A stretch of 64,000 nt of DNA from an uncultured Patescibacteria group bacterium (GCA_934699595.1 CAKUWT010000002.1:37065-101064); one strand, 5' to 3'. Shown: positions 6,794 to 64,000, counted from the first letter of the stretch. Notes: generated by a model not told the origin, from the sequence alone. Numbers and translations are program-made.

Positions 6794-6819
6794 AATGGTG
6801 TCACTGTGGTCGGTACACA

Positions 6820-7131
6820 TTACATGATGACGTGTACCGCTAGGCGGCGCCTAAGCTCGTGCCGGGGATCTTTTCCTCGCTTCACAGTTTCGAGAACTTT
6901 TCTCGCGCGCCGGTGGCAGCGGAGCGAGTGAAAGAAATAGGCTCGTCCCCAGATACTCATTTTAGAGTGGTCTCCCAGACCACGATGGCGAATAGGTTGT
7001 CCGCAGCCGCAGATACAGACATCGCGCCTGTCTGCAAAATTGAAAACATGGTCAAGCACGGCCGTGCGGTTTTTTTCACGTATTATCACATCGCACTTGT
7101 TGCTGGTGTCGAACAGGTTGACAATATTCAT
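6820..7131 (-). CDS. Small Cys/His-rich protein; paralog 2 of 6304..6633
   Basis: 103 aa with the same conserved CICGC/FFH..C motif. A GAGGAGAGG SD lies upstream of the ATG. Confidence 0.45.
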   Translation of the reverse strand: MNIVNLFDTSNKCDVIIREKNRTAVLDHVFNFADRRDVCICGCGQPIRHRGLGDHSKMSIWGRAYFFHSLRCHRRARKVLETVKRGKDPRHELRRRLAVHVIM

Positions 7132-18117: not shown

Positions 18118-18390
18118 TGACTATAAAAATAGAAATGTCCTGGCGGTACTGTTCACAGAAACAGTCTCCCAGACTGTTTCTGCCCAGACAGAGTTGCTTC
18201 GCCTCTTAGCGTTAAATTGCTCACTAATATTCAGTAACCTAGATGTCGGGGAGCCGGGAATCGAACTCTACGAGTTCAGTATCCCAATTGGATATTTCCT
18301 TCGGCTGGCGCCTTAGAAATATCTCAATCGGGCTTCGATTCCTCAAGAATAGTCCCCCAGACTATTCTTGCCCAAACAACGTTAGGTTTT
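18118..18390 (-). repeat. tRNA-associated modular repeat element, copy C (minus orientation, split architecture), containing a copy of the tRNA-Pro 3' half
   Basis: On the minus strand, a tttgggCAAGAATAGTC-tgggg-GACTATTCTTG hairpin at 18345-18371 is followed by aatcgaagcccgattgagatatttctaagg and a tRNA-like end GTTCGATTCCCGGCTCCCCGACA at about 18245-18268. That end is identical to the tRNA-Pro 3' end. A second hairpin unit, CAGAAACAGTC-tgggag-GACTGTTTCTG with its agtaccgccaggacatttctatttttatag tail, lies at 18118-18185. Confidence 0.6.
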
Positions 18391-18436
18391 GTATCTGTAG
18401 TTATATGTTACTCACTAATATCCAGTAAGTCACTTG

Positions 18437-18507
18437 TCGGGGAGCCGGGAATCGAACCCGGGCCGCACGGTCCCAAACCGCGTACACTACCATTATGCTA
18501 CACCCCG
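18437..18507 (-). tRNA. tRNA-Pro(TGG)
   Basis: Hand fold of the minus strand. The acceptor is CGGGGTG/CTCCCCG with one T-T mismatch at 6:67. The anticodon loop is TTTGGGA and the T arm CCGGG-TTCGATT-CCCGG. No CCA is encoded. Confidence 0.7.
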
Positions 18508-25261: not shown

Positions 25262-25385
25262 GATTCTCGATAATCAAAGTTGGTTATAATTAAAGCACCC
25301 GCGAGGGCTCATGAGATTAAGGTACACAGCTGTTACCTGAATCAAACTGATAACAAACCTTATCAATAAAAATTTAAGAATCAAT

Positions 25386-25832
25386 ATGATGAAATTAATG
25401 AAAGAACGTGGTTTCACCCTCATCGAACTCTTGGTGGTGATTGCCATTATTGGTATTCTCGCCGCTGTAGTCTTAGCTTCACTTAACGATGCACGTAAGT
25501 CTGGTAATGATGCTGCTCTAAAACAATCGATGGCGTCACTAAGATCACAGGCGGAGATTTTCTATAATGAAAATAGTTTTTCTTACAGCGGTTTCTGTGC
25601 CACCTTGGCTACCGGTCAGCCAAACGCAGCTCTAGCTGCCTCAATTCAGAACAATAGTAACGGGGCAGGTGCTCCTGTGTGTGTGCAAAATACCAGTGGC
25701 ACAGGTTGGGCAACCACAGCTATTATATCTTCAGGTAGAAAGTGGTGTGTAGATAGTACTGGAGTGGCTAGGGATATTGCTGCTGCGGCTACAACCCCTA
25801 CAAATGCGGACCCTACTTGTCCAGCTTCTTAA
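25386..25832 (+). CDS. Type IV major pilin, copy 1
   Basis: 148 aa with the prepilin leader MMKLMKERG followed by FTLIELLVVIAIIGILAAVVL, and C-terminal Cys pairs. Confidence 0.85.
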   Translation: MMKLMKERGFTLIELLVVIAIIGILAAVVLASLNDARKSGNDAALKQSMASLRSQAEIFYNENSFSYSGFCATLATGQPNAALAASIQNNSNGAGAPVCVQNTSGTGWATTAIISSGRKWCVDSTGVARDIAAAATTPTNADPTCPAS

Positions 25833-25854
25833 TTTAGTATAAAAACCAAATAAT

Positions 25855-25884
25855 AAAACAAGACCCGTATCCGGGTCTTGTTTT
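25855..25884 (+). terminator. Rho-independent terminator after pilin 1
   Basis: AAAACAAGACCCG-TAT-CCGGGTCTTGTTTT. Confidence 0.65.
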
Positions 25885-26053
25885 ATTATGATTAACTGTC
25901 CCAGTTATATATACCTAGGAGTTATGCACAGACAAAAATAATTACCATACTGGATATAGAGGTTTCTTGTATACTTAAAAAAGATTAAGGTATACAGCTG
26001 TTACCTGAATCAAACTGATAACAAACCTTATCAATAAAAATTTAAGAATCAAT

Positions 26054-26494
26054 ATGATGAAATTAATGAAAGAACGTGGTTTCACCCTCATCGAACTCTT
26101 GGTGGTGATCGCTATTATCGGTATTCTCGCCGCTGTAGTCTTAGCTTCACTTAATGACGCCCGTAAGTCTGGTAATGATGCCGCTTTGAAACAGTCGATG
26201 GCGTCGGTGCGGTCGCAAGCAGAAATTCATTATAATGAAAATGGCTTTTCTTATGCCACTTTCTGTGACAGTGGTACATTGGCTTCTGCCAATGCAGCCT
26301 TGCGTGATTCTATTAGGAATAATAGCAGCGACAACACTAATCCCGTTTGTACTTCGAGTGCAGATGCCTGGGCGGCCTCAGCTAGGATTTCTGACAATCC
26401 CGGTACTACCGCTCGCTATTGGTGTGTAGATAGTACGGGTGCGGCCAGAGAGGGGACGACTGCTCTAGGATCTAGCGCGACAGTTTGTCCGTAG
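26054..26494 (+). CDS. Type IV major pilin, copy 2
   Basis: 146 aa. The first roughly 60 codons and 71 nt of upstream sequence are near-identical at the nucleotide level to copy 1. The C-terminus is divergent. Confidence 0.85.
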   Translation: MMKLMKERGFTLIELLVVIAIIGILAAVVLASLNDARKSGNDAALKQSMASVRSQAEIHYNENGFSYATFCDSGTLASANAALRDSIRNNSSDNTNPVCTSSADAWAASARISDNPGTTARYWCVDSTGAAREGTTALGSSATVCP

Positions 26495-26510
26495 ACCGCT
26501 AGTCTTGAGG

Positions 26511-26549
26511 AAAACAAAAACCGCCATCTTTGATGGCGGTTTTTGTTTT
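26511..26549 (+). terminator. Rho-independent terminator after pilin 2
   Basis: AAAACAAAAACCGCCATC-TTTG-ATGGCGGTTTTTGTTTT. Confidence 0.65.
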
Positions 26550-26575
26550 CCTAAGTATGTTATTATTTGAGGACA

Positions 26576-27043
26576 ATGAGATTGTGCCAATTACAGCTAG
26601 GTAAACAGCGGGGTTTCACCCTCATCGAACTCTTGGTGGTGATTGCAATTATCGGTATTCTGGCTGCCGTAGTTTTAGCTTCATTAAATAGTGCCCGCAA
26701 ACAAGGGAATGATGCTGCTCTAAAACAATCGATGGCGTCACTAAGATCACAGGCGGAGATTTATTACCTAAGAAGTAATTTTACTTACGACGGTTTCTGC
26801 GACACGTTAACCTCCGGAAAAGTTAATGCGCACTTAGGAGATTCGATTAAGAAAAACAGCAACAACAACACTGCTCCAGTTTGTAATGATGAGGATCAGG
26901 TTTGGGCTGCCTCGGCACAGATATCTCCACAGGGTGTAGTGAGCCGCTATTGGTGTGTAGACAGCACGGGAGTCGCCAAGGAGCAGGCTTCTGCTTTGGC
27001 TGGCATGGCTGGCGCACCCGCGGTCGACACCCAGTGTTTGTAA
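26576..27043 (+). CDS. Type IV major pilin, copy 3 (longer leader peptide)
   Basis: The ATG at 26576 gives MRLCQLQLGKQRG|FTLIELLVVIAIIGILAAVVL. The track's TTG at 26567 is an alternative start. The C-terminal half is divergent. Confidence 0.8.
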   Translation: MRLCQLQLGKQRGFTLIELLVVIAIIGILAAVVLASLNSARKQGNDAALKQSMASLRSQAEIYYLRSNFTYDGFCDTLTSGKVNAHLGDSIKKNSNNNTAPVCNDEDQVWAASAQISPQGVVSRYWCVDSTGVAKEQASALAGMAGAPAVDTQCL

Positions 27044-27045
27044 GC

Positions 27046-27387
27046 CCGGCTTCTTCGGTGCGCTCACAGGCGGAGATTCATTATTTAAAAAATGGTTTCA
27101 CTTACACTAGTTTTTGTAACTCTTTTAACTCCGGCCAAGCAAATTTTCCCTTAGGGCAATCAATTAAGAAAAATAGTTATGCCAATGAAGGAATCGCTTG
27201 TATGGATAGAAATTCTAGCTGGGCTGTTGTTGCTCCGGTGTTACGAGAGGGGGGCGAAGTGAAGGCGTGGTGCGTAGACAGCACTGGCTGGGCGGGGATG
27301 CTGCAGGTTTCAGATAGTTTATATTACTATAATGCCAATATCTTAAAGCCAGACTCATGCCACTCCTTTACTCTTGTTGCCAGTTAG
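27046..27387 (+). pseudogene. 5'-truncated pilin copy lacking start codon, leader and N-terminal helix; a silent-cassette candidate
   Basis: Reading-frame homology begins at ...SVRSQAEIHYLKNGFTY..FC...GQSIKKNS...WCVDSTG, matching the pilin C-terminal domains (compare copy 2 ASVRSQAEIHYNENGFSY and copy 3 GDSIKKNS). It directly abuts the pilin 3 stop and is only read through from an out-of-frame overlap, 26902.. in the track. Confidence 0.6.
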
Positions 27388-50814: not shown

Positions 50815-51222
50815 ATGGCAACAATCAATCAATTAACCAAAAAGAAACGGGTTGACCCAGCTCGCAAACGCAAGACGGGTGCTTTGTACATGGGCTTTGA
50901 CTCAGTAGAGAACAAGCCTAACTACTACAATTCACCTTTCAAGCGTGGCGTCTGTACGCGTGTGACCACCAAGACTCCACGTAAGCCGAACTCAGCGATT
51001 CGTAAAATCGCTCGTGTCCGTCTTTCTAACGGCTTGGAAATTACCGCCTACATTCCTGGTATTAAGCACACTCTGCAAGAACACTCCGTAGTGTTGGTGC
51101 GAGGAGGACGTGTGAAGGATATTGGTGTGAACTACACCATTGTCCGCGGAAAATACGATGCGACTGGTGTTAGCGAGCGCCGACGAGGACGCTCAAGATA
51201 TGGTGCAAAGAAACCTAAATAA
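50815..51222 (+). CDS. rpsL: 30S ribosomal protein S12
   Basis: 135 aa with [52 protein letters not shown]. Confidence 0.95.
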
Positions 51223-51421
51223 ACTTTAATCATAAAAAGTTTAGGGATCCGTACACCAAAATAGTTTATATTCGCTACAGATAAACGACTGCGATACAGA
51301 GGTAGGACCTTTGGTATCAAGAATATGCGAAGAATGAAAAAGTCAGCTTTTAAAATAATAAGTTTGCCTCTCTCATTCTTAATTACTTACTAAATTAAGA
51401 ACTTAAGTTTACTAAAACTAT

Positions 51422-51895
51422 ATGCGACGACCAGTAAAAAAGAAGCCAGTCGTAAAGCCAGACGTTAAGTATGGCTCTATCGATGTGGAGCGCTTGATCA
51501 ATTACATCATGCTCCATGGTCAGAAGGAAACCGCCCGCAAAATCGTTTATGGTGCTTTCGCTGAAATCGAAAGTCGTAAAGATGGCGGCGGTGATCCGGT
51601 GGAAATGTTTAATACTGCGCTGCGGAACGCCGGTCCGTTGATGGAGGTGCGCTCTCGTCGAGTGGGTGGAGCCAACTACCAAGTGCCGCGAGAAGTGCGG
51701 CCAGAGCGTCGGGTATCTCTCGCTTTGCGTTGGATTATCAACGCGGCCCGCGGACAAAAAGGTGTCCCGATGTACAAAGCCTTGGCAAGTGAAATCCTGC
51801 TGGCTGCTAAAGAAGAGGGAACTGCTGTGAAGCGACGCGATGATATGCACAAGATGGCAGAAGCCAACCGAGCCTTTGCTCACTTTGCTTGGTAG
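51422..51895 (+). CDS. rpsG: 30S ribosomal protein S7
   Basis: 157 aa with an S7-typical sequence. Confidence 0.95.
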   Translation: MRRPVKKKPVVKPDVKYGSIDVERLINYIMLHGQKETARKIVYGAFAEIESRKDGGGDPVEMFNTALRNAGPLMEVRSRRVGGANYQVPREVRPERRVSLALRWIINAARGQKGVPMYKALASEILLAAKEEGTAVKRRDDMHKMAEANRAFAHFAW

Positions 51896-52010
51896 TAATC
51901 CTGTCAACTGCTTTAAAGTCAAAGCCCCGTTCTCATGAACGGGGCTTTGACTTTATCCCTATCATAATTACCAAAAATGGTGTAGGGTAAGCTTTCATTC
52001 AACCTATGAT

Positions 52011-53492
52011 ATGTCACGACCAGAAGGCGTAATTGTTTTTAAAGAAGTGGGTTTTGAGTACGACTCTACCCGACCGATTCTCCGCGAGGCGAGTTTTGTG
52101 GTGCGCCGTGGCGCCAAACTGACGCTAATGGGACAAAACGGGGCTGGAAAGAGTACTATTTTCTCCCTCATTACCGGAAAATTAGCCACTGATGAGGGTA
52201 GTATTAACTTGCCGCCTCGTACCACCATTGCCATTGCGCGCCAGATTATTCCTCGGGAAGAATTGCTGCTGACGGTGCGTGATTTTTTCCTGGAGAGTTT
52301 TAGCGAAAAGGTTTATGATATAGACCCACGGATTGATGCAGTCTTGGAAATCGTCAACCTGACTCCAACTGAGAAGCAACGTAGTACTTTTAAGGATAGG
52401 ATTGTTGGCACTTTTTCTGGCGGACAACAGGCCCGGCTGTTGTTGGCGCAGGCTTTAATTCAGAACCCAGATATTTTATTACTTGATGAACCGACTAATA
52501 ACTTAGATCGGAGCGGTATTGAGCAACTGACTACTTTTTTGAAAGAGTACCGCAAGACGGTGCTGGTTATTTCTCACGACGCTGACTTTTTAAACGCTTT
52601 TACCGAAGGAATTCTTTATTTAAATACCCAAACCAGAACGGTGGAGCAGTACGTGGGTAATTATCACGCCGCTCTGAAACTAATCGCCGCCCAAGTCGAG
52701 CGTGAGCAAAGACAGAATACTTTACTGGAAAAAGAAATTAGAGACAAGAAAGACAAGGTCAACTACTTCGCCAATAAGGGCGGTAAGATGCGCCTATTAG
52801 CCAAACGGATGCGGGAGGATATTGCCGAGGCAGAGGAAGATAAGGTGGAGGTGCGTCGCGAGGACCGCACTATTCGTGACTTCACCATCCCGAAACAGGA
52901 TAACTTACCCACCACGGTGCTAACTTTAGATAATTACCAGGTGATTAAAAACCACGAACCAAAAGTAGTAACTTGCGACCTGGTGCTGAAAAAAGGGGAG
53001 CATCTGCAGATTATTGGCCCCAACGGGATTGGTAAGACCACTTTGTTGGAGCGCTTAGCTAATGATGAGACTAATGAGTACGTGGCCGCTGGCGTTAAAG
53101 TCGGTTATTATCGCCAGGATTTTTCTAACTTAAATTTTGAGAAAACTGTCCTACAAATTCTCGAAGAGGCCTTGAGTAGTCGCAATGAAGAGGCTGTTAG
53201 GTCGCGAGCGTCCGGATTTTTGCTGACCGCGGAAATTATGAAGACCAAAGTTGGCCATTTATCAGAAGGACAGAAGGGTTTGGTGGCGTTTGCTAAGCTG
53301 GTTTTGGAAGCTCCTGGCTTGCTGATTCTGGACGAGCCCACCAACCATATCAATTATCGGCACTTGCCAGTGATTGCCAAAGCTTTGGATCAGTACGAAG
53401 GGGCGCTGATTTTGGTCTCGCACGTGCCGGAGTTTGTGGCCAAAGTACGGATTGATACGGTTCTGGATTTAGGAAAGAAAATCCGTAAGTAA
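52011..53492 (+). CDS. ABC-F family ATPase (tandem ABC domains, no TM domain)
   Basis: 493 aa with two Walker A motifs (GQNGAGKST; GPNGIGKTT), two LSGGQ/LSEGQ signatures and a charged inter-domain linker. Confidence 0.8.
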   Translation: MSRPEGVIVFKEVGFEYDSTRPILREASFVVRRGAKLTLMGQNGAGKSTIFSLITGKLATDEGSINLPPRTTIAIARQIIPREELLLTVRDFFLESFSEKVYDIDPRIDAVLEIVNLTPTEKQRSTFKDRIVGTFSGGQQARLLLAQALIQNPDILLLDEPTNNLDRSGIEQLTTFLKEYRKTVLVISHDADFLNAFTEGILYLNTQTRTVEQYVGNYHAALKLIAAQVEREQRQNTLLEKEIRDKKDKVNYFANKGGKMRLLAKRMREDIAEAEEDKVEVRREDRTIRDFTIPKQDNLPTTVLTLDNYQVIKNHEPKVVTCDLVLKKGEHLQIIGPNGIGKTTLLERLANDETNEYVAAGVKVGYYRQDFSNLNFEKTVLQILEEALSSRNEEAVRSRASGFLLTAEIMKTKVGHLSEGQKGLVAFAKLVLEAPGLLILDEPTNHINYRHLPVIAKALDQYEGALILVSHVPEFVAKVRIDTVLDLGKKIRK

Positions 53493-53551
53493 TGACTATT
53501 TAGTGTTTCTGATAAATTAGGTACTTGCCCGGCAGAATTGGGAGTAGGTTA

Positions 53552-53580
53552 TTGACATCCGTACTTAAATATGCTATATT
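53552..53580 (+). promoter_or_regulatory. Canonical sigma-70-type promoter for the GC-rich minigene
   Basis: TTGACA (53552-57), 17-nt spacer, TATATT (53575-80). A GGGAGG SD at 53607-12 lies 7 nt before the ATG. Confidence 0.55.
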
Positions 53581-53619
53581 AGAAGGAGTAAAGGATTGTT
53601 ATTTCTGGGAGGAATATCG

Positions 53620-53946
53620 ATGTGTAAGATCGAGCGGCGTGAAATTGCGCTGGAGACCAGCACGGTCTTCGTCTCCGACAGGCATGACTGCCCGTACTCG
53701 GAGCGGTATTGTACCGCTCTCCCCGAGTACGGGGAAAGTGATCAGGTCTCTGACCTGATCGCCGCCGCTTTCGACCGCCGGGCCGAGCGGGAACGCTTGG
53801 CCGCTCTGAAGAGGTGCCGCGGTCGCGGCCGCTCCGGGTGGAGGCCGCTGCGCATCCACGATTACCGTAGCGGACAGCCGACCATTTCGGTTGAGGCCGA
53901 GGCTGATGCTGAAGAGTTCGCCAGCTATGCTGACTTCGACGTGTAG
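53620..53946 (+). CDS. Small hypothetical protein encoded by a visibly GC-rich, compositionally foreign segment
   Basis: 108 aa (MCKIERREIALETST...). It has a strong promoter, an SD and a downstream terminator. GC content by eye is well above that of the flanks. Confidence 0.5.
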   Translation: MCKIERREIALETSTVFVSDRHDCPYSERYCTALPEYGESDQVSDLIAAAFDRRAERERLAALKRCRGRGRSGWRPLRIHDYRSGQPTISVEAEADAEEFASYADFDV

Positions 53947-54049
53947 GATCTTTTGCTTGACGAAGCTGGGTGGCTGGCGGAGATGATTCTCCCCCAGAGA
54001 CCCGGCGCCAGTCTTGATCTGAGGTAACACCTCCGATCGTTCAAATTAA

Positions 54050-54077
54050 GGCCGCCAGCTCGCTGGCGGCTTTTTTC
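54050..54077 (+). terminator. Rho-independent terminator of the GC-rich minigene
   Basis: GCCGCCAGC-TCG-CTGGCGGC followed by TTTTTT. Confidence 0.65.
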
Positions 54078-54122
54078 TGTGTCAGGTAGTTTCTAGAGAT
54101 ATTTTTGCTATAATGCACCTAT

Positions 54123-54689
54123 ATGAAAAATATTATTATTGTCGGATTGGGGTTGGTGGTCGTAGTCTTGTTAGTCTGGGCTTTTATGACGGGTAAGCTT
54201 GGATTTGGCACACCGGTAGCGACCGTGCCGGGAGAAGAAACAAGTACCACTACCGACAATCCCGCGACTGAGACTGGTGAAGCTGAAGACAGTGATGCCG
54301 ACGAGCAGTGGGTGGCCAGTTACTTGCCCGCCATTGACGCTTTGGCTGATAAGATTACCGTTAGTTCGGTTACTCCGGGCACGGTAATAACTTCGCCAGT
54401 AACCATCGCAGGAGAGGCTCGAGGTCCTTGGTATTTTGAAGCTAGTTTTCCAGTTTTCCTCAATAATTGGGATGGTCTGACGATCGCCACTGGTGTCGCA
54501 ACCGCCCAAAGTGATTGGATGACTGAAGACTTTGTCCCATTCACACTATCCTTAAGTTTTGTTAATCCGTACCAGGTTGGTGACCCTGATTTTATGAAAA
54601 AGGGCACGCTGATACTTAAGAAAGACAATCCTTCTGGCTTACCCGCCAATGACGCCAGTTTAGAGGTGCCGATTTTCTTCGCCAACTAG
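54123..54689 (+). CDS. Membrane-anchored secreted protein with a Gmad2-like immunoglobulin-like domain
   Basis: 188 aa with an N-terminal anchor, an acidic T/E/D-rich linker and a beta-rich C-terminal domain. Confidence 0.45.
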   Translation: MKNIIIVGLGLVVVVLLVWAFMTGKLGFGTPVATVPGEETSTTTDNPATETGEAEDSDADEQWVASYLPAIDALADKITVSSVTPGTVITSPVTIAGEARGPWYFEASFPVFLNNWDGLTIATGVATAQSDWMTEDFVPFTLSLSFVNPYQVGDPDFMKKGTLILKKDNPSGLPANDASLEVPIFFAN

Positions 54690-54867
54690 TTTGGTGACTG
54701 CCGCGGACGGGTGACGTGCCGTTGCCGTTTCGTCATTAATGCGTTATAGTACCTCCGTCTTGTCATTTTATGACGGTACTCTTTTCTATCAGCCGTGCGC
54801 AATTTTGTGAACAAAGAGACGGAAGGAGGTTTAGCAACAATCAATTAAATTTTAATAACTTTATTTT

Positions 54868-57039
54868 ATGGCCCGAGAGTTTCCTATTGAGCGCACCCGC
54901 AACTTTGGAATTGTAGCGCACGTTGATGCTGGAAAGACCACGACCTCTGAGCGTGTACTTTTCTTTACTGGTATGACCCATAAATTGGGTGAAACCCATG
55001 ATGGCGCATCTGTGACCGACTGGATGGAGCAAGAACGCGAGCGTGGTATCACGATTACGGCGGCGGCAATTTCTTGTAACTGGTCCAAGTCTGACGTGGT
55101 GGATCGTACCGATAAATCACAAATGTATACCTTCAATGTTATCGACACCCCGGGCCACATCGACTTTACCGCTGAGGTGAAGCGGTCAATGCGCGTTTTG
55201 GACGGCGCCGTGACCGTCTTTGACTCGGTGGCAGGAGTGGAGCCGCAATCAGAGACCAACTGGGCTTATGCTGATGAGGCGGGAGTACCACGATTGTGCT
55301 ACATCAATAAGATGGACAAACTCGGCGCTGACTTCAATAAGGCCTACCAAACCATTGTCAGTCGCTTGTCTAGCAAAGCTGTGCGCGCCCAAATACCGTG
55401 GGGCAAGGAGGATAGTCTCAAGGGAGTGATTGATTTACTGACTCGAAAAGCCTACACCTTCGAAGGTAATATGGGCATGGAAATTAAGGAGCATGAGGTG
55501 CCTGAGGAATATCGCGAGGAAATGGAAGAGTTACGTGCCGAATTGATTGAGCGCATTGTGGAGCATGATGACGCTGCTATGGAAGCTTTTTTGGAAGGCG
55601 AAGAGCCGAGCTTGGAAGATCTGAAGAAGATCATGCGTAAAGCGGTGTTGGCTAATGAAATCTTCCCGGTTTATACTGGTTCCTCATTGAAAAATATCGG
55701 CGTACAGCTAATCCTTGATGCTGTGGTGGACTACCTGCCGTCACCAGTTGATTTGCCGCCAGTGCACGGTATCAATCCTAAAGATGATAGTGAAATTGAG
55801 CGTAAGCCAAGCGACGCTGAGCCATTTGCCGCCCTGTCTTTCAAATTGCAAACTGACCCGTTTGTGGGGCAGCTTACCTTTTTCCGAGTTTATTCGGGTG
55901 TGATTAAAGCTGGTAGTTATATTTATAACGCCAATACTGGTAAAAAGGAGCGACTCGGACGGATCGTACGTCTTCAGGCTGACAAGCGTACTGAAATTGA
56001 GGAAGTTTACGCTGGTGAAATTGCTGCTGGAGTTGGGTTGAAAGATATTAAGACGTCACATACTCTTTGTGACGAGAATAACCCGATTATTCTAGAGCAG
56101 ATCACTTTCCCAGAACCGGTGATCGCCCTTCGAGTGGAGCCGAAAACTAAGAACGACCAGGAGAAAATGGGTGTCGCTCTTAAAAAGTTGGCTGATGAAG
56201 ACCCGACTTTTAAAGTATCTACTGACCCAGAAACGATGGAAACAATTATTGCGGGTATGGGCGAGCTACACCTTGAGGTGTTGGTGGACCGGATGAAGCG
56301 TGAGTTTAACGTGGAGGCTAATGTGGGTACGCCACAAGTAGCTTATCGTGAGACCATTCAACGGGAAGCGGAAGCCGATTATAAGTACGTTAAGCAGTCT
56401 GGCGGTCGGGGGCAATATGGACATGTCAAGATTCGTATTAAACCAATGGAGCCGCTGGCTGAGGGTGAAACTGTGGCCAAGAACGTTACTCGTGAAGATC
56501 ACTTTGAGTTCATCAACAGTATCAAGGGAGGGGTGGTGCCACAGGAGTACATTCCAGCTGTGGTAAAAGGTGCGCGCGAAGCGATGGCCCGTGGACAGGT
56601 GGCAGGATACAAAATGGAGGATGTCTCAGTTGAGCTTTACGACGGTAGCTACCATGATGTTGACTCCTCAGAAATTGCCTTTAAGTTAGCCAGTATTTAT
56701 GCTTTCCGGGACGCGGCTAAGAAAGCTAACGCCGTCTTGCTAGAGCCAGTGATGAAGGTAGAAATCCGCACCCCAGAAGAATACCTTGGTGATATTAACG
56801 GTAATATTTCTAGTAAGCGAGGTCACGTGGAGAGTATGGGAGAGATTGGCGACAAGCGCGTCATTACTGCCAAAGTACCACTATCAGAAATGTTTGGTTA
56901 TACCAATACCTTGCGCTCAATGACTCAAGGGCGAGCTACTAACATGATGGAGTTTGATCACTACGCCGTGGTGCCACCAAATATTGCTGATGAGATTAAG
57001 AAAGTGCGTGGGGTCAAGGACGTGGTCGACGAAGATTAG
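54868..57039 (+). CDS. fusA: Elongation factor G
   Basis: 723 aa with G-domain motifs AHVDAGKTT and DTPGH, and full five-domain length. Confidence 0.95.
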   Translation: MAREFPIERTRNFGIVAHVDAGKTTTSERVLFFTGMTHKLGETHDGASVTDWMEQERERGITITAAAISCNWSKSDVVDRTDKSQMYTFNVIDTPGHIDFTAEVKRSMRVLDGAVTVFDSVAGVEPQSETNWAYADEAGVPRLCYINKMDKLGADFNKAYQTIVSRLSSKAVRAQIPWGKEDSLKGVIDLLTRKAYTFEGNMGMEIKEHEVPEEYREEMEELRAELIERIVEHDDAAMEAFLEGEEPSLEDLKKIMRKAVLANEIFPVYTGSSLKNIGVQLILDAVVDYLPSPVDLPPVHGINPKDDSEIERKPSDAEPFAALSFKLQTDPFVGQLTFFRVYSGVIKAGSYIYNANTGKKERLGRIVRLQADKRTEIEEVYAGEIAAGVGLKDIKTSHTLCDENNPIILEQITFPEPVIALRVEPKTKNDQEKMGVALKKLADEDPTFKVSTDPETMETIIAGMGELHLEVLVDRMKREFNVEANVGTPQVAYRETIQREAEADYKYVKQSGGRGQYGHVKIRIKPMEPLAEGETVAKNVTREDHFEFINSIKGGVVPQEYIPAVVKGAREAMARGQVAGYKMEDVSVELYDGSYHDVDSSEIAFKLASIYAFRDAAKKANAVLLEPVMKVEIRTPEEYLGDINGNISSKRGHVESMGEIGDKRVITAKVPLSEMFGYTNTLRSMTQGRATNMMEFDHYAVVPPNIADEIKKVRGVKDVVDED

Positions 57040-57090
57040 GCGCGCCAATTCTAAAGAAAGCACCTAATCGTCGCTTAATAAAAAATAATT

Positions 57091-57130
57091 AAAATCCCTC
57101 TCACCCGAGAGGGATTTTAATTATTTTTTA
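57091..57130 (+). terminator. Rho-independent terminator after fusA
   Basis: AAAATCCCTCTC-ACCC-GAGAGGGATTTT followed by a T-run. Confidence 0.65.
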
Positions 57131-57225
57131 TCAACAACTTTACGTTGCCTATGTCAACAGAGGAGGGAAGTGTGACATAATAAACTGAACTTAATAGTTA
57201 GTTAAATTAAAATATTATTATTGGT

Positions 57226-57846
57226 ATGACCGTCTCATCTTTCTTCAAAAGCACCGCCCTCCTCGGAATGGTTGCCTTTGGCCTATTAGCCTACAACTTT
57301 ATCCAAGCTTCTTGGACAGCGCCTACAGCGACTCCTCCTGGGGGCAACACTGATAGACCGATTAACGTTGGTAGTATTTATCAAGCTAAGTCTGGTGACC
57401 TTGGTGCTATCCGCATGCGGGCAGGACAGTATTGTAATGCGGCGGGGACGAAGTGTTTTACAGCTGATCAGGTGGAGGGGCTAGTTAAAGCTGGCGGTAC
57501 GGTGACTCCTCCAGGTGGTACACCGACTGACATTTTGCGAAGGGAGAGTGGGCGAGCAACTATTGCTACCGAGTCATACGGTTTTGGGTCACGCAATTCT
57601 GGTACTAGAGCTAAGCCTGTTTCCGTCAGTTTTGGTAAATCATTTACTAGCGTTCCGATGGTGCAAGTCACAACTGCAGATGGTCGCAACCTTGTTGATG
57701 CTCCAGTAGCTGTTTCCCGAACTGGCTTTATAGTGACAATTCCGCAAGACTGCAGCACTTCCACTCACGGCTCGGGTGAGGCCGAGACTACCCGATGTAA
57801 TCCTCGCTACACCGGATCGCTAAACTGGAATGTTATTGGCAATTAA
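57226..57846 (+). CDS. Secreted or anchored protein with an H-type-lectin-like C-terminal domain; paralog 1
   Basis: 206 aa. The first roughly 78 codons are nucleotide-identical to 62505... The C-terminus (VSFGKSFTSVPMVQVTTADG...VSRTGFIVT) resembles the H-type lectin beta-sandwich. Confidence 0.5.
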   Translation: MTVSSFFKSTALLGMVAFGLLAYNFIQASWTAPTATPPGGNTDRPINVGSIYQAKSGDLGAIRMRAGQYCNAAGTKCFTADQVEGLVKAGGTVTPPGGTPTDILRRESGRATIATESYGFGSRNSGTRAKPVSVSFGKSFTSVPMVQVTTADGRNLVDAPVAVSRTGFIVTIPQDCSTSTHGSGEAETTRCNPRYTGSLNWNVIGN

Positions 57847-57854
57847 TAAAAAAT

Positions 57855-59081
57855 ATGCAAGATTCACCTTTAAATCATCTGAGAAACACCTCGCTTATTG
57901 TCGCCACCTTTTTACTAGGTGCTTTTCTCGCTACGTTATTTTTGTTACCGGTGGCAGTTACTGCAGCAGAGTCACCTTTTGATAGTAATGTGCCTCTGAC
58001 TGGATACGCATGGAGTAGTAACATCGGTTGGATTTCTTTTAACTGCCAAACAGGCGGTAACTCGGGAGGTAATATTTGTGCTACTAGTAATTATAAAGTG
58101 GAGATTAAAACTGACGGTACGCTCTCAGGCTACGCTTGGAGTAGTAACATTGGTTGGATTAAGTTTGGCGGGCTGAGCGCCATTCCTAGTGGTCCTGGTA
58201 ATGCGGCTAATAATGCCCAACTAGTTAGTGTTGGCAGTGATAAGTATGAGTTACAGGGTTGGGTTCGAGTCTGTTCCTCAAACTCAGCCGCTGGGTCTTG
58301 TAATTTTGGAGTGACTCGTAACGAAGGCTGGGATGGTTGGATTTCTCTAAAGGGGACCAGTCCTAACTACACCACTGAGTTTACCAGCGCTGGCGTAGTT
58401 AAAACTCCGGTCGGTTACGCTTGGGGCAGTAGTGTAGTGGGTTGGATTGGTATGACTCATCTCGATATTGAGGCTCCTGAGGCTATTAAAATTACTAGTT
58501 TCAAAAAAGGCGCTGGTGAAACATTGGCGACAGATGGTTCAGAGACTTATGACAATGTTACGTTAGTTGCCACGGTTACTGGAGTTGATACGGGTAAGAG
58601 CGTGCCGTATACCGTTACTGTTAATGGGGTGACAAAAACTGGTACTTATAAAGCCGATAGTCCAACAACTGGTACCTTTACCCCAGCGCTGAAGTTTGAC
58701 GGCGTACCCGCTAATGTGCCCGTGACGGCTATCTTGAGAGTGGGTACTGCAAAGAATTATGACGAAAAAACCATCACCCTCAATCTTGTGGCGGCTGCTG
58801 CTACCGTGAGTCTGAAAGCTCAGCCAGATCTCGTCCGCCCTGGCTCGACCTCAAACCTAAGGTGGACAGTTTCTAGTCCGCAGGATGTTTCTTGTCAGAT
58901 TACTGGTGGGGGAATGGATAAGACTGTTAACATAGCCGGTGGAACCCCGGACACTGGTAGCGTTGACACCAATGTGATAAATAACCTTACCCGGTTCACG
59001 ATCACGTGTTCTGGAGCAGGAGTAATCACAACTAGCGAGTCGACAACAGTAAGTGTGGTACCTTACGTAATGGAGAGATAA
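57855..59081 (+). CDS. Secreted repeat-containing surface protein
   Basis: 408 aa with an N-terminal signal/anchor and three copies of a GYAWSSNIGWI(S/K)F-type motif. The C-terminal half is T/V/G-rich and beta-like. Confidence 0.5.
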   Translation: MQDSPLNHLRNTSLIVATFLLGAFLATLFLLPVAVTAAESPFDSNVPLTGYAWSSNIGWISFNCQTGGNSGGNICATSNYKVEIKTDGTLSGYAWSSNIGWIKFGGLSAIPSGPGNAANNAQLVSVGSDKYELQGWVRVCSSNSAAGSCNFGVTRNEGWDGWISLKGTSPNYTTEFTSAGVVKTPVGYAWGSSVVGWIGMTHLDIEAPEAIKITSFKKGAGETLATDGSETYDNVTLVATVTGVDTGKSVPYTVTVNGVTKTGTYKADSPTTGTFTPALKFDGVPANVPVTAILRVGTAKNYDEKTITLNLVAAAATVSLKAQPDLVRPGSTSNLRWTVSSPQDVSCQITGGGMDKTVNIAGGTPDTGSVDTNVINNLTRFTITCSGAGVITTSESTTVSVVPYVMER

Positions 59082-59110
59082 TTAATCAAAAAATATTATA
59101 AATTGTAGAT

Positions 59111-59443
59111 ATGGAACTAATTAGAGAGAAAAAAGTATTTTGGTTATCGGCGGCGATCCTCATCTTCATGCTGATGCTAATTGGCATCTATATAGTTATC
59201 GGTATCGAATCTGCTAAAAGACATTCTCAGCCTGACTTAGTAGATGATCAGTCTGGGGGCATGTTAGATGATAGCGCTGAGCGTCAAGCTATTTGGGAGG
59301 ATCTGAACCAGGAGGCGCCTGAGATGGCCCCGGAAGAAGTAGAGGAAATTATTTCTGATCTAGATAATCCTACTAGCGTTGACATGGAGGAGGCAGAGAG
59401 GCAGCAAATTGCGGAGGAATTATCGATTGGCTTGGGGGAATAA
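59111..59443 (+). CDS. Small membrane-anchored acidic protein
   Basis: 110 aa with one TM helix and a D/E-rich tail. A terminator at 59462-59500 follows. Confidence 0.4.
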   Translation: MELIREKKVFWLSAAILIFMLMLIGIYIVIGIESAKRHSQPDLVDDQSGGMLDDSAERQAIWEDLNQEAPEMAPEEVEEIISDLDNPTSVDMEEAERQQIAEELSIGLGE

Positions 59444-59810
59444 TCTTGGGTATTGTAGACAAAAAAATAAGCCGCGGGCAAAGCCCGCGGCTTATTTTTC
59501 ATCAGGCACCATCCCTAAAGCCGCTCTCACCCAGTAGAAAATCACTTGAGAAAGGAGGGTAATTTAGTCAATAGTAAGAGACGAGAGGGCTAGTAGGGTG
59601 GTCGTTGGTTGCGCCAGCATTATTCTCGTGCTACACTCCCTCTCAGCGTTTAAGACCTATGTTCGCTAATTGCTCCCTTGCGGAGCAAGAGAACCACTGG
59701 GCACAATTAACCGTGCCTAATGCTATGCCGACGAAAGTCTGTTAGCTGAGGACGGTTTTTGTTTTTAGGTTTCCGGTCTAGCGCTTTTATTAGCATAAGT
59801 GAAAATAACA

Positions 59811-60431
59811 ATGAAATTTATTGTTGGCACTAAGGAGCGCATGACGCAGATTTTTGACGCTGACGGCGTTTGTCATCCTGCCACCGTGCTCCGAGTGGAA
59901 TCGGCAGCCATCACTCGTATTAAAACCAAAGATTCCGATGGTTACGATGCGGTGCAGGTGGCGACTGGTGTAAAAAAAGACCACCGTGTACGTCGCGCCG
60001 ACAAAGGTCAGCACGAGACTGCTGAGACAGTGCGTGAGTGGCGACCAAAAAGTATTTATGGTGAGGATATTACCGGCTTGACGGTCGGGCAAACCTTGAA
60101 TGCTGAGACTTTTGCTGCTGGCGATAAGATTGCTGTGTCGGCTGTCTCTAAAGGTAAAGGTTTTCAGGGAGTGGTTAAGCGTCACAACTTTGCTGGTGGC
60201 CCACGAACGCACGGTCAGAAGCACTCTGAACGTCGCTCTGGTTCAATCGGTTCCACTGGTAATATGCGCGTGCTGAAGGGTACTCGCATGGCCGGTAGGA
60301 TGGGTGGCGACCGGATTACGGTCAAGAATCTCACTGTACTGCAGGTAGATGCTGCTAACAACTTATTACTGGTGAAGGGCGCTGTCCCTGGTCGAAAAGG
60401 AACTTTAGTAGAAGTGCGTGGCGCTAATTAA
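59811..60431 (+). CDS. rplC: 50S ribosomal protein L3
   Basis: MKFIVGTKERMTQIFD... is L3-typical. The start is taken at the ATG at 59811, not the upstream GTG at 59799. Confidence 0.9.
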   Translation: MKFIVGTKERMTQIFDADGVCHPATVLRVESAAITRIKTKDSDGYDAVQVATGVKKDHRVRRADKGQHETAETVREWRPKSIYGEDITGLTVGQTLNAETFAAGDKIAVSAVSKGKGFQGVVKRHNFAGGPRTHGQKHSERRSGSIGSTGNMRVLKGTRMAGRMGGDRITVKNLTVLQVDAANNLLLVKGAVPGRKGTLVEVRGAN

Positions 60432-60435
60432 ATAA

Positions 60436-61119
60436 ATGATTATGAAAATTAATGTTTATTCTAGTACAGGAACTACTAAAGGGGAGTTTAATCTTCCGGA
60501 GCAGGTTTTTGCTCTACCTTGGAATGGAGATTTGGTGCACGATGTGGTGACATCCATGCAAGCCAATGCTCGGGCTGGGACTGCTCACACTAAGGACCGT
60601 GGTGAGGTGCGTGGTGGTGGTAAAAAACCATGGCGTCAGAAAGGAACTGGTCGTGCCCGTCATGGTTCTCGTCGCAGCCCGATCTGGGTTGGTGGTGGAG
60701 TTACTCATGGACCACGTAACGAGCGTGATTACAAAGTCAAGATAAATAAGAAAGTGAAAGCGAAGGCTTTGGGGATTATTCTCAGCCGCAAATTAGCTGA
60801 TACCGAAATTATTGCTTTGGATAGTTTAGCACTATCGGAAATGAAAACTGCTAAAGCGGTAGAGGTGGTAACAGCGGTGGCCAAGGCTTCAGAGGCAAGC
60901 GCCTTAGCTACTAAGAAGCAGAATGCTGCCTTGGTAATCTTGCCAGAGCGTGATGAGGTTGCGGAAAAAAGCTTCCGCAACTTAGGACAATTCTCGGTAA
61001 TGCAAGCCAAGGACATTAGTCCAGTTGATTTACTAACCTATAAATACGCTGTGTTAGTCAACCCGGAAGCGACGGTAGAAATTCTTTCTGCGCGTGTGCT
61101 GCCGATGGTGACTAACTAG
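60436..61119 (+). CDS. rplD: 50S ribosomal protein L4
   Basis: 227 aa with L4-typical features (GGGKKPWRQKGTGRARHGS). Confidence 0.9.
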   Translation: MIMKINVYSSTGTTKGEFNLPEQVFALPWNGDLVHDVVTSMQANARAGTAHTKDRGEVRGGGKKPWRQKGTGRARHGSRRSPIWVGGGVTHGPRNERDYKVKINKKVKAKALGIILSRKLADTEIIALDSLALSEMKTAKAVEVVTAVAKASEASALATKKQNAALVILPERDEVAEKSFRNLGQFSVMQAKDISPVDLLTYKYAVLVNPEATVEILSARVLPMVTN

Positions 61120-61132
61120 CGAAGAAATTGTT

Positions 61133-61483
61133 ATGGCCCTCTTTAGTCGAAAAAAATCAGAATCTACAGCGGCAACCGTGACCACTAGTCAGGCAACTGA
61201 TCGTAATCTAGAGGCGGTGATTATCCGTCCATTGATTACTGAGAAGGCACTCGGACAGAGCGATCGTCGAGTCTATGCTTTTCTAGTTCGTCGGGATGCT
61301 AATAAATTTGCTGTATCCGCTGCAGTAGCTGCGGTCTATAAAGTGACGCCGGTAAGGGTGAATATCGTTAACAAAGCACCAAAGCAAGTCAAATCACGCA
61401 CCCGCGGTCGAATGGTGTCAGAACGTGGTTACAAGAAAGCTTACGTCTACTTAAAAGCAGGCGATAGCATTAACCTAATCTAA
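61133..61483 (+). CDS. rplW: 50S ribosomal protein L23
   Basis: 116 aa; the position and sequence (IIRPLITEKA...) fit L23. Confidence 0.85.
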   Translation: MALFSRKKSESTAATVTTSQATDRNLEAVIIRPLITEKALGQSDRRVYAFLVRRDANKFAVSAAVAAVYKVTPVRVNIVNKAPKQVKSRTRGRMVSERGYKKAYVYLKAGDSINLI

Positions 61484-61488
61484 AGCAG

Positions 61489-62349
61489 ATGAAAAAATAT
61501 AACCCTACATCTCCTGGTCGTCGTGATGGTTCAGTAATCGAGTATCGCAAGAAACTCACCTCTACCACCAATCGCCCGCTAAAAAGTTTGACGCGCGGTC
61601 GTAAAAGTACTGGTGGACGCAATAGCTACGGACGTACTACAGTAGTGAGTCGTGGTGGCGGTCACAAGCGTACTTATCGCCAGATTGACTTTAAGTATGA
61701 TAAGAAAGATATTGCTGCTCGAGTGGAAAGTATCGAATACGACCCATTTCGCACTGGTTTTATTGCCCTGGTACTATATCGAGACGGTGAACGACGCTAC
61801 ATTCTCGCCCCACAGAAACTGACTCAGGGTGATGAAATCTTGGTTTCCGAAAAGGCTAAGATCGCTGTCGGTAACCGTTTGCCGCTCAAAGAGATTCCGG
61901 TCGGAACTTACGTGTACGGGATTGAAATTAATCCTGGTGCTGGTGCTCGACTGGCGCGAAGTGCGGGAAACTTTGCTGAAGTGGTTGCTCACGACGCTGG
62001 TTACACTACCGTCAAGCTGCCGTCTTCAGAAATCCGTAAAATTCACGGTACGGCCTGGGCTTCTGTCGGTGAGGTGTCTAACGAAGAAAATCGCTTAGTC
62101 ACTCTCGGCAAGGCTGGGCGTGCCCGACACGTTGGAATTCGACCGAAGACTCGGGGAAGTGCCATGAACGCCGTCGATCACCCACACGGTGGTGGTGAAG
62201 GTCGTTCGCCTCGTGGTCATCGCCGCGCTCGCACCAAACAAGGTCGTCCGGTTGGTAAAGGTCAGAAGACCCGCTCACCGAAGAAGCACTCTAATAAGTT
62301 TATTGTGCAGCGTCGGAAGCCAGGTCGCTTGATGACGAGCAAGAAGTAG
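61489..62349 (+). CDS. rplB: 50S ribosomal protein L2
   Basis: 286 aa with GRNSYGRTT...VDHPHGGGEGR. Confidence 0.95.
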   Translation: MKKYNPTSPGRRDGSVIEYRKKLTSTTNRPLKSLTRGRKSTGGRNSYGRTTVVSRGGGHKRTYRQIDFKYDKKDIAARVESIEYDPFRTGFIALVLYRDGERRYILAPQKLTQGDEILVSEKAKIAVGNRLPLKEIPVGTYVYGIEINPGAGARLARSAGNFAEVVAHDAGYTTVKLPSSEIRKIHGTAWASVGEVSNEENRLVTLGKAGRARHVGIRPKTRGSAMNAVDHPHGGGEGRSPRGHRRARTKQGRPVGKGQKTRSPKKHSNKFIVQRRKPGRLMTSKK

Positions 62350-62370
62350 TGCACCCTGTTCAGGTAAGTA

Positions 62371-62407
62371 AAAATAAAACACCTCCCCTCAGGAGGTGTT
62401 TTATTTT
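62371..62407 (+). terminator. Rho-independent terminator after rplB
   Basis: ACACCTCC-CCTCA-GGAGGTGT flanked by A/T runs. Confidence 0.6.
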
Positions 62408-62504
62408 ACCTCGCTATCAACAACTCCTCACTTTAGCTTGTAAAACATTAGTATCAGTGTGACATAATGTACTCATATCCGTAATTAGTTTACCTAGTCA
62501 AATA

Positions 62505-63347
62505 TTGCGTATGACCGTCTCATCTTTCTTCAAAAGCACCGCCCTCCTCGGAATGGTTGCCTTTGGCCTATTAGCCTACAACTTTATCCAAGCTTCTTGG
62601 ACAGCGCCTACAGCGACTCCTCCTGGGGGCAACACTGATAGACCGATTAACGTTGGTAGTATTTATCAAGCTAAGTCTGGTGACCTTGGTGCTATCCGCA
62701 TGCGGGCAGGACAGTATTGTAATGCGGCGGGGACGAAGTGTGTGACTGCCGACGGATTAATTGGTGGTGGCTCAGGGCAGGCAATGGCGATTGGCCGAGT
62801 GGCGATGACTGTTAATGCGGCGGGGAACCTAACTGTTGGTACGGTAACTTTTGATAAACCTTTTGATAAGGTGCCAAAAGTAGTGGCGTCAGTGCAAGAC
62901 GCTTATTACAATGGACCTTGTCGGGGTGACGAAATTATTTTCCGAGTTAATGTCCGTAGTGTATCCAGAACCGGATTTGTAGTAGAGGCCCCGTATGCTA
63001 CTGGTGGTTGTGGAACACGGAGAGTGGTCGGAGCGAGTTGGATAGCTTTGGCAGATGGTGGCGCCAACACCCTTGTGCGCACTTTTAGTGAAAATCAGAT
63101 GAAAAATGCTGTTAAAAAAGAGAATCCATCGGTAGCAACTGCTGACGCCGTACATGACACTCCGGGAAACCGCGCGGCTCTTTGTGAGTCACTATTTCCT
63201 GGCAGTAGCCCTACCAGAGCCACGACAGGATCATTCACTTCCCCTAGTAACAACACAGTTTACACTTTATCGGGCTTTACAGTTTGGACACGGGCGGGTG
63301 CTAGTGGACGTAATGTGACTTTGACTAGTTTGGAGTGTACCAGGTAG
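62505..63347 (+). CDS. Secreted or anchored H-type-lectin-like protein; paralog 2 with a C-terminal extension
   Basis: 280 aa. The 5' about 235 nt and the 13-nt upstream motif agtgtgacataat are identical to paralog 1. A lectin-like core (VTFDKPFDKVPKVVASV...VSRTGFVVE...SWIALADGG) is followed by an extra roughly 90 aa. Confidence 0.5.
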   Translation: MRMTVSSFFKSTALLGMVAFGLLAYNFIQASWTAPTATPPGGNTDRPINVGSIYQAKSGDLGAIRMRAGQYCNAAGTKCVTADGLIGGGSGQAMAIGRVAMTVNAAGNLTVGTVTFDKPFDKVPKVVASVQDAYYNGPCRGDEIIFRVNVRSVSRTGFVVEAPYATGGCGTRRVVGASWIALADGGANTLVRTFSENQMKNAVKKENPSVATADAVHDTPGNRAALCESLFPGSSPTRATTGSFTSPSNNTVYTLSGFTVWTRAGASGRNVTLTSLECTR

Positions 63348-63645
63348 TTATAAGTCACTTTAGTAACTAAAATTACAAAACGGCCACATTTTCTGTGGCT
63401 GGTTTTGGTTAAAGTGGTAAGTCTATACTTGCAAAAAAATCCTTATTTGTTAACATAGACCACACCGTACAGCAGAGTCTACTTAGTAACTTTGCGTGTC
63501 GGAGCAGAAAATATTTGGCTCTTTCACACTTACCTTAAGTGTACAGTGGTAACGCGCCGTTCTCGCGCCGTTACCAATGTATATTTAGGCTGGCTTATTA
63601 AAGACAGCAGTGCGGTTTATTAATTATCTATAAATTAAATTTATT

Positions 63646-64000
63646 ATGGCTGAAAATTATGATCGTTCCAAGCCGCACGTAAACGTTGGTACTATTGGTC
63701 ACGTTGACCATGGTAAGACTACTACCACGGCTGCTATCCTTACTGTCCTTAAAGCTCATGAAGCTGAGGGTTATGGAGCCAACGTGAAAGATGTGGCGGC
63801 TATCGACAAAGCGCCAGAGGAGAAGGCTCGCGGAATTACTATTTCCTTGTCTCACTCTGAGTACGAAACTCCTAAGCGTCATTACGCACATATCGATGCT
63901 CCTGGTCACGCTGACTATATTAAAAATATGATCACCGGTGCCGCCCAGATGGACGGGGCTATTTTGGTAGTATCAGCTACCGACGGTGCTATGCCGCAGA
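63646..64000 (+). CDS. tuf: Elongation factor Tu; N-terminal part, running off the window end
   Basis: [31 protein letters not shown]...[26 protein letters not shown]. It is not in the ORF track because no stop lies within the window. Confidence 0.9.

Follow-up and report, generated by a model that had tools for sequence, protein, structure and literature searches.

Two genes for putatively secreted proteins, here called A and B, lie on either side of the ribosomal genes rplC-rplD-rplW-rplB (rplCDWB) in the window analyzed, a stretch of 64,000 nucleotides (nt) from an uncultured Patescibacteria group bacterium (GCA_934699595.1, CAKUWT010000002.1:37065-101064; positions are counted from its first letter). 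The two genes begin with exactly the same DNA and then diverge. Our findings favor the interpretation that A and B are old paralogues whose first 77 codons were probably homogenized by a recent nonreciprocal ectopic recombination event, i.e., gene conversion. The shared segment specifies a predicted signal peptide and the conserved N-terminal module (N-module) of a large protein family with variable C-terminal domains.

Results

Extent and edges of the repeat

The identical segments form a direct repeat (57224-57456 and 62509-62741, both on the plus strand) of 233 nt at 100% identity, with a unit of 5,285 bp that encloses rplCDWB. Each copy consists of 2 nt (GT), the ATG, and 76 further codons (MTVSS...AAGTKC), i.e., 231 coding nt; both genes start MTVSSFFKSTALLGMVAFGLLAYNFIQASWTAPTATPPGGNTDRPINVGSIYQAKSGDLGAIRMRAGQYCNAAGTKC, and tblastn of the module against the whole window found these two copies only. 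The first-pass annotation had described an identical promoter-plus-5' module of ~240 bp, with the first 235 coding nt identical and ending at 57460 and 62745. The repeat itself is real, but identity stops at the Cys77 codon (57456 in A and 62741 in B), and the promoters lie outside the block, in upstream regions that have only two short motifs in common.

The flanks of the tract are homologous but old. Past the 3' edge, the next four codons specify (F/V)-T-A-D in A and B alike, and the three synonymous sites there are all different (ACA/ACT, GCT/GCC, and GAT/GAC); farther on, the two proteins can be aligned over one 53-residue stretch only, with 17 identities (BLASTP). At the 5' edge, identity ends 2 nt upstream of the ATG. 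The 5' untranslated regions (UTRs) have diverged to ~50% likeness, yet they keep a common layout of terminator, CAAC-motif, -10 element, and a UTR of 40-50 nt. Such flanks, together with zero differences across 233 nt, point to a recent recombination tract rather than to selection on the protein.

Module DNA in other genomes provides the background for this comparison. It is 43-83% identical, mostly 55-68%, in 52 within-locus paralogue pairs, and ~68-72% identical between g1 and g2, the tandem family genes of the closest relatives. Since paralogous modules vary this much elsewhere and every synonymous site just past the A/B tract differs, recent recombination accounts for the identity better than selection does. 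Homogenization in the family is sporadic, not continuous, and the A/B pair is an outlier; pervasive concerted evolution is ruled out by the low identity of most within-genome pairs. An RNA-level explanation is also ruled out, as folding of the 233-nt tract revealed no unusual structure (z-score, +0.47). This result and the freedom of module DNA to vary in other genomes make a nucleotide-level function of the tract unlikely.

Secretion signal and N-module family

Both proteins start with what looks like a Sec signal peptide (amino acids [aa] ~1-28, predicted cleavage after IQA), judging from a basic n-region, a hydrophobic core, and cleavage after the conserved Ala of a ..YNF-x-x-A motif. Neither A nor B matches the Pfam model N_methyl, which describes the prepilin motif G|F-T-L-x-E, so a type IV pilin reading of the pair is ruled out; the true pilins of the window, at 25386, 26054, and 26567, match this model at E ~1e-9. 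The three tandem pilin genes (25314-27176) have a shared upstream/5' region, 289 nt at 89% and 64% identity, which is lower than in A/B, and divergent 3' parts. A parallel drawn earlier between A/B and these pilins thus holds for the arrangement of shared 5' and divergent 3' regions but not for the nature of the proteins.

The family has a common architecture of Sec signal peptide, conserved N-module of ~50 residues, short and often Gly-rich linker, and variable C-terminal domain. Its module follows the pattern W-x-x-P..PP-x-x-N-x-x-x-P-I-N..Q-x-K-x-G-D-L-G-A-x-R-x-R-A-x-x-Y-C-x6-C, and A and B align with all invariant columns (near-invariant positions in A numbering: W30, P38, N41, P45, N47, Q53, K55, G57, Y69, C70, G74, and C77). 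An exhaustive search with a profile of the N-terminal 87 columns, on which our estimate of the breadth of the family is based, matched 3337 representative proteins at E<=1e-3 and 259 at E<=1e-10; word-indexed homologue searches had yielded just 11, 9, and 1 matches. In the best 150 of the 3337 matches, proteins of 68-520 aa, the module always lies at or near the N-terminus, within the first ~45 residues. Named records of the family come from metagenome-assembled genomes of Patescibacteria and Candidatus Kaiserbacteria. No model in Pfam, NCBIfam, or PHROGs covers the N-module, and the literature on Kaiserbacteria/Patescibacteria lectins, gene conversion, and surface proteins yielded no description of the family.

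The C-termini are diverse. Among 144 representatives, Pfam recognizes H_lectin in 8, TSP1 in 7, the Gp53-like tail-fiber C-terminus (Gp53-like_C) in 2, Lcl_C in 2, Peptidase_S74 in 1, and, weakly (E 5.5e-4), PCSK9_C3 in 1; the remaining C-termini have no Pfam match, and many of them are Cys-rich. The signal peptide, the many Cys-rich tails, and the lectin, TSP1, or fiber-tip character of those tails that can be recognized suggest that family members probably act as binding proteins, either secreted or displayed at the surface. Through the constant module they may be anchored to the cell surface, the envelope, or a partner structure, and the variable domain would then bind glycans or other ligands on host cells. 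AlphaFold alignments were shallow (15 rows), and the N-module region was modeled at a predicted local distance difference test score (pLDDT) of <50, with no fold assignable.

C-terminal domains of B and A

Gene B (62511-63347, plus strand) encodes 278 aa comprising signal peptide, N-module, H-type lectin domain, and a C-terminal extension of ~90 aa; its orthologue in the closest relatives is g1 (P0002). The lectin domain (aa 111-179; 62841-63047, plus strand) passes Pfam PF09458 (H_lectin) at E 1.4e-7, with 32 bits against a gathering cutoff of 24, as do the orthologues P0002 and P0003. Foldseek placed the AlphaFold model of B closest to SLL-2 (E 8e-4; target-normalized TM-score, 0.73), the Helix aspersa and Helix pomatia agglutinins (HAA and HPA), and discoidin I/II among Protein Data Bank (PDB) structures (first entries matched: 3wmp, 4q56, 2ce6, 2ccv, 6cxb, 2w94, and 2vm9), with R-pyocin fibers and phage tailspike C-termini also among the best matches. 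With a mean pLDDT of 60.6, the model is of low confidence, and the fold match is supportive, not conclusive; a PDB sequence search with the C-terminal 201 aa of B gave no match. Judged by its sequence and predicted fold, the domain of B qualifies as a bona fide H-type lectin, and by analogy with other H-type lectins and fiber knobs, B is possibly trimeric. Because the public protein of gene B (P0001, 264 aa) begins at an internal Met (62553), 14 residues are missing from the beginning of its signal peptide. Translation likely starts at the homologous ATG, at 62511, and a TTG at 62505, listed by the open reading frame (ORF) tool, is probably not used.

Gene A (57226-57846, plus strand; 206 aa) continues from Cys77 through a linker into a divergent orphan C-terminal domain. 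No Pfam match was obtained for A, even at E<=10 with the isolated C-terminal part, nor any match in NCBIfam or PHROGs; in a word-indexed search of 5.8 billion proteins, its C-terminal 129 residues found only themselves. A profile of the lectin core of B, g1, and g2 aligned to A by hhalign with 92% probability (E 5e-7) over 44 columns only, at aa 132-175 (57619-57750, plus strand; VSVSFGKSFTSVP...VSRTGFIVTIP), which is also where the BLASTP alignment with B supports a remote, shortened H-lectin-like core. The fold search with the low-confidence model of A (pLDDT 56) reached HPA and a pyocin fiber at E 0.15-0.3 only, below significance. The version of the core in A lacks the GPCRGD-containing loop, and its sequence is best read as that of a remote, shortened relative of the lectin domain of B. 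The first-pass annotation had taken both C-terminal domains for diverging H-type-lectin-like domains and suggested comparing each with H_lectin models; this assignment stands for B, whereas the short profile match is all that ties A to the fold.

Promoters and terminators

A and B each form a putative transcription unit of their own, with terminator, promoter, ATG, and a full ORF ending in a stop codon, and this promoter layout is common to the whole N-module family. The unit of A is limited upstream by an intrinsic terminator after fusA (57083-57126, plus strand; found in a terminator scan and read from the sequence), and that of B by a terminator hairpin read from the sequence after rplB (62376-62407, plus strand), in a layout alike in relatives. 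Directly after each terminator stands the 10-nt motif TATCAACAAC (57129-57138 for A and 62415-62424 for B, both plus strand), which is replaced by GGGTACAAC or TTCAACAGC in relatives. The second shared element is the 13-mer AGTGTGACATAAT, which reads as an extended -10 (TGaCATAAT). In A it occupies 57169-57181, within a promoter-like site detected by scanning (57154-57181, plus strand; TCAACA-16-CATAAT with TG); in B it occupies 62456-62468 and closes the promoter region (62415-62468, plus strand). The gene A promoter (TGTGACATAATAAAC) resembles that of the 405-aa gene of a close relative (TGTGGCATAATAAAC; L001). The terminator scan also placed a terminator after gene B (63381-63401, plus strand), ahead of the tuf promoter and leader.

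Mosaic and degenerate family members in other genomes

Mosaic members of other genomes show that domain shuffling does recur in the family. L003_14311 and L003_15172 have N-modules that are 87% identical in aa and near-identical promoters, and their C-termini are unrelated; L003_9992 and L004_6635 (81%) and L003_15963 and L004_10792 (79%) likewise combine similar N-modules with unrelated C-termini. L004_10792 and L003_9992 are the reverse case, with a common C-terminus (50% identical) on different modules (also 50%). L003_14311 is an additional gene with no counterpart in the sister genome L004, whereas positional orthologues of L003 and L004 are stable (C-terminal parts at 88-98% aa identity and modules at 85-99%).

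Other members are degenerate or of doubtful assembly. The gene ahead of rplC in L003 (10846-11650) is a truncated member of 89 aa, with module remnants (..QYCDAAGGNCF..) out of frame downstream, and L004 has an intact gene of 152 aa (6635-7093) behind a promoter nearly identical to that of L003; the pair exemplifies gene turnover and decay within the upstream island. The second tandem family gene of L001 (10875-11558) contains a run of N and a stretch that matches g1 and not its own counterpart in L002, which reflects either paralogues confused in assembly or g1/g2 recombinants present in the population.

Gene order around rplCDWB

The window order is A, a 408-aa and a 110-aa secreted/membrane protein, rplC (59811-60431), rplD (60436-61119), rplW (61133-61483), rplB (61489-62349), B, and tuf, with rplCDWB on the plus strand and labeled by the Pfam matches of orthologues. 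The two repeats therefore bracket four ribosomal and two surface-protein genes, as noted earlier. That such bracketing is unusual, also claimed then, is contradicted by relatives: family genes flank rplCDWB in five of six GTDB genome loci, and in 14 of 26 metagenome loci one stands between rpsJ and rplC or immediately behind rplB. A family gene follows rplB, as B does, in L001-L004, L006, L012, and L020, and relatives also have members ahead of rplC. The flanking of rplCDWB by family genes on either side is a clade-wide feature, not a peculiarity of the window genome; specific to the latter are the site of gene A directly after fusA and the perfect A/B identity.

L001 and L002, the closest relatives, are near-identical to each other and stem from two Joint Genome Institute samples. 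They have the order fusA, 405-aa gene, 118-aa gene, rplC-D-W-B, g1, g2, tuf, rpsJ, DUF2103 (reverse strand), rpsS, and rplV onwards, from which the order of the window genome past base 64000 (tuf-rpsJ-DUF2103-rpsS) was deduced. The wider clade retains the classical order, interrupted by islands, and has fusA, 405-aa gene, tuf, rpsJ, an island with family genes, rplCDWB, one to six family genes, DUF2103, and rpsS. The tuf-rpsJ pair thus follows rplCDWB in the window lineage and precedes it in the wider clade, which amounts to a block swap next to family genes. More generally, the str/S10 region is heavily interrupted (window 50815-64000; L001-L007 and L015-L034), and in the window it runs rpsL, rpsG, ABC-F ATPase, Gmad2-domain secreted protein, fusA, A, two surface proteins, rplCDWB, B, and tuf.

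The 408-aa secreted protein (57855-59081, plus strand), whose orthologue stands after fusA throughout the clade, carries GYAWSSNIGWI(S/K)F repeats, with motif copies at 58002-58034 and 58128-58160 and a third, degenerate one, as well as a weakly CshA-repeat-like stretch; it is not matched by any family model. The membrane-anchored acidic protein of 110 aa (59111-59443, plus strand) is followed by a terminator (59467-59499). Between this terminator and rplC lies a conserved leader of ~170 nt (59630-59800) with a promoter-like site of its own and counterparts in L001 (7100-7326), L003 (11450-11652), L004, L006, and L007. Besides a conserved core (TTTAAGACCTA..CAATGGGCACAA), it contains a long hairpin with a T-run behind it; between genomes, the stem varies by paired changes. 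Rfam returned only subthreshold matches for the region upstream of rplC, around the terminator of the 110-aa gene (59400-59567), and one of 12.5 bits at 59735-59824. In this clade, in which rplC is cut off from rpsJ, the element is possibly a ribosomal-protein leader or attenuator (L4-type?) that has not been described before. Elsewhere in the window, a 50-nt direct repeat of 86% identity (18217-18266 and 18408-18457) overlaps with its second copy the 3' part of tRNA-Pro (18436-18507, minus strand). Partial tRNA duplication often marks an integration site.

Discussion

Probable gene conversion and its alternatives

The explanation that we consider most plausible is that the module of one gene was copied onto the other by nonreciprocal homologous recombination. 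The tract would have halted where similarity became too low, i.e., in the AT-rich UTR at one end and in the linker past the last Cys of the module at the other. The conserved 5' module would be the only stretch sufficiently alike among family members to support homologous recombination, and it would act passively, as a site where genes are homogenized or rejoined to new 3' parts, giving rise to mosaic genes such as those of the sister genomes. Crossing-over between the direct repeats would either delete rplCDWB, which would be lethal, or duplicate a 5.3-kb segment; therefore, only conversion products are likely to persist.

Several points weigh against this interpretation. It rests on one assembly without reads, so the exact 100% could be slightly inflated by assembly or polishing. 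The 5' end of the tract falls almost exactly at the start codon, and a single simple tract of conversion would not account for the further 13 nt that are identical in the -10 region. Conversion is sporadic rather than pervasive in the family, given the 55-68% identity of most paralogue pairs. The site of gene A is unique, so that a chimeric origin by duplication or transposition is not cleanly separable from conversion. Moreover, the function ascribed to the N-module is pure conjecture at an AlphaFold confidence below 50, and the domain of A may not work as a lectin.

The unique site of A gives substance to an alternative that we regard as unlikely, namely, that A is a recent chimera in which the 5' end of B, from the start codon to the end of the module, was joined in frame to an older 3' part during a move into the gap between fusA and the 408-aa gene. 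A would then perhaps be a relocated counterpart of g2, and the identity the footprint of a rearrangement rather than of conversion between stationary paralogues. Consistent with this, L001, L002, and all other relatives lack a gene between fusA and the 405/408-aa gene, and the window genome lacks the second tandem gene that follows the B orthologue in L001 and L002. The first lectin strand of A (SVSFGKSFTSVP) is closest to that of g2 (SVSFGKTFTSPP). A also ends (stop codon) 8 nt ahead of the 408-aa gene, behind a promoter matching that of the 405-aa gene in L001, as if inserted between promoter and gene, and a similar case is the additional gene L003_14311, the promoter and 5' end of which are borrowed. 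However, a simple recent duplication would have left either the 5' UTR or the 3' part identical, and neither is, the 5' UTR of A being unlike that of B. Mobile-element genes or target duplications were not seen at the insertion, and the chimera still requires a homologous-recombination step at the module, in which it overlaps with gene conversion.

An assembly or consensus artefact, in which the modules are in reality similar but not identical or one junction is misjoined, is very unlikely. The sequence does come from one metagenome assembly, the proteins on record (NCBI/ENA) derive from one 141-kb contig only, and the run of N with its g1/g2-chimeric stretch in the second family gene of L001 indicates that assemblers struggle with these paralogues. 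Against this, both copies sit in unique flanks with both ORFs intact and in frame, the context of B is syntenic with relatives, and the edges of identity coincide with edges of preexisting homology rather than with arbitrary positions. Collapse would remove a copy, not create two. At most, an identity of 95-99% would have been rounded up to 100%, which leaves the interpretation unchanged.

Programmed variation, with the 5' module as a dedicated recombination handle for swapping C-terminal cassettes at high frequency, is the most improbable of the alternatives. The mosaic genes of several genomes, the up to six tandem family genes after rplB, and the difference in gene content at these sites between the closely related L003 and L004 are what it could draw on, but silent promoterless cassettes are missing: a terminator and a promoter of its own accompany each of most members (a few closely spaced tandem ones are probably cotranscribed), and nearly all are complete ORFs. 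No conserved sequence lies 3' of the variable part to complete an exchange, and with homology only 5' of it, a double crossover cannot exchange the 3' domains. Most modules, at 55-68% DNA identity, are too dissimilar for frequent homologous exchange, the L003/L004 orthologues are stable, and neither a recombinase nor a reverse transcriptase was identified next to the genes, in a neighborhood not screened specifically for them. Of the gene conversion or cassette swapping proposed in the first-pass annotation, recombination is thus retained as the best explanation of the identity, alongside the mosaics of relatives, whereas ongoing swapping between A and B lacks the anatomy that it would need.

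A family within the ribosomal gene block

It is ordinary for paralogous genes of surface proteins to undergo gene conversion, and the repeat in itself is no surprise. More interesting is the residence, inside the S10 ribosomal gene block of a Kaiserbacteria-like clade, of a large undescribed family with constant heads and variable tails. To our knowledge, almost nothing has been reported on how Patescibacteria other than Saccharibacteria recognize and attach to hosts, and the N-module family provides a concrete set of candidates for binding studies. Furthermore, the islands interrupt a ribosomal-protein block that is concatenated for phylogeny of the Candidate Phyla Radiation and used for checks of contig integrity.

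A more far-reaching proposal, which we advance tentatively and hold to be rather unlikely as a whole, is that N-module genes encode Patescibacteria-specific modular host-binding fibers or adhesins in hypervariable S10-operon islands, that the 5' module serves as a handle for reassorting heads (lectin, TSP1, tail-fiber-like, and Cys-rich), and that the window has caught one such event. If true, episymbiotic ultrasmall bacteria would have an undescribed route for changing host or surface specificity, and the same process may also account for the reordering of tuf-rpsJ relative to rplCDWB in the window lineage.

Comparison with known systems

Surface variation based on gene conversion is known from Neisseria pilE/pilS, Borrelia vlsE, and mycoplasma surface-protein families. 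The N-module genes resemble these systems as a surface or secreted multigene family with constant N-terminal and variable C-terminal parts, nonreciprocal recombination, and mosaics. Unlike these systems, they have no single expression site with silent cassettes, since A, B, and most members are complete with their own promoter; here, the constant rather than the variable part is converted, homology is one-sided, and events are rare. Cassette-based antigenic variation of the pilE/pilS type does not fit A and B, both of which are full units with similarity only 5' of the variable part. Nor does the pair look like a target of a diversity-generating retroelement, as the repeat is 100% identical and N-terminal and no other repeat involves A or B, in an analysis in which reverse transcriptases were not screened.

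Polymorphic toxins (Rhs/CDI/MafB) combine a constant N-terminus with a swapped C-terminus and an immunity gene. The constant N-terminal trafficking part, the variable C-terminal domains, the tandem arrays, and recombination at the module boundary are common ground with the N-module family, the C-termini of which are of adhesion type (lectin, TSP1, tail-fiber-like, and Cys-rich) and not toxins. A toxin reading of A and B is ruled out by their neighbors, neither of which is immunity-like (the conserved 408-aa gene comes after A, and a terminator after B).

By Pfam match and low-confidence fold hits, B is like the H-type lectins (PF09458; Helix pomatia/aspersa agglutinin, SLL-2, and the C-terminal domain of discoidin I/II) and like R-pyocin/phage fiber knobs. 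Eight of the 144 family representatives share the H-type domain, and others have tail-fiber C-terminal domains. What sets the family apart from the known H-type lectins is the fusion of the domain to a bacterial signal peptide and a family-specific N-module, and A differs further in that it fails the Pfam model and is without the GPCRGD-containing loop.

A functional parallel comes from the Saccharibacteria type IV pili, whose lectin-like minor pilins PilX1 and PilX2, of L-type and PLL-type folds, have been proposed to bind host cell-wall glycans (PMC11623550). Unlike these, A and B are without a prepilin motif and look like ordinary Sec substrates, and the predicted fold of B is H-type. In common with PilX1 and PilX2, they are Patescibacteria proteins that join a conserved N-terminal part to a C-terminal domain that is lectin-like, in A only remotely (PMC11623550), and the window, too, encodes type IV pilins with shared 5' ends.

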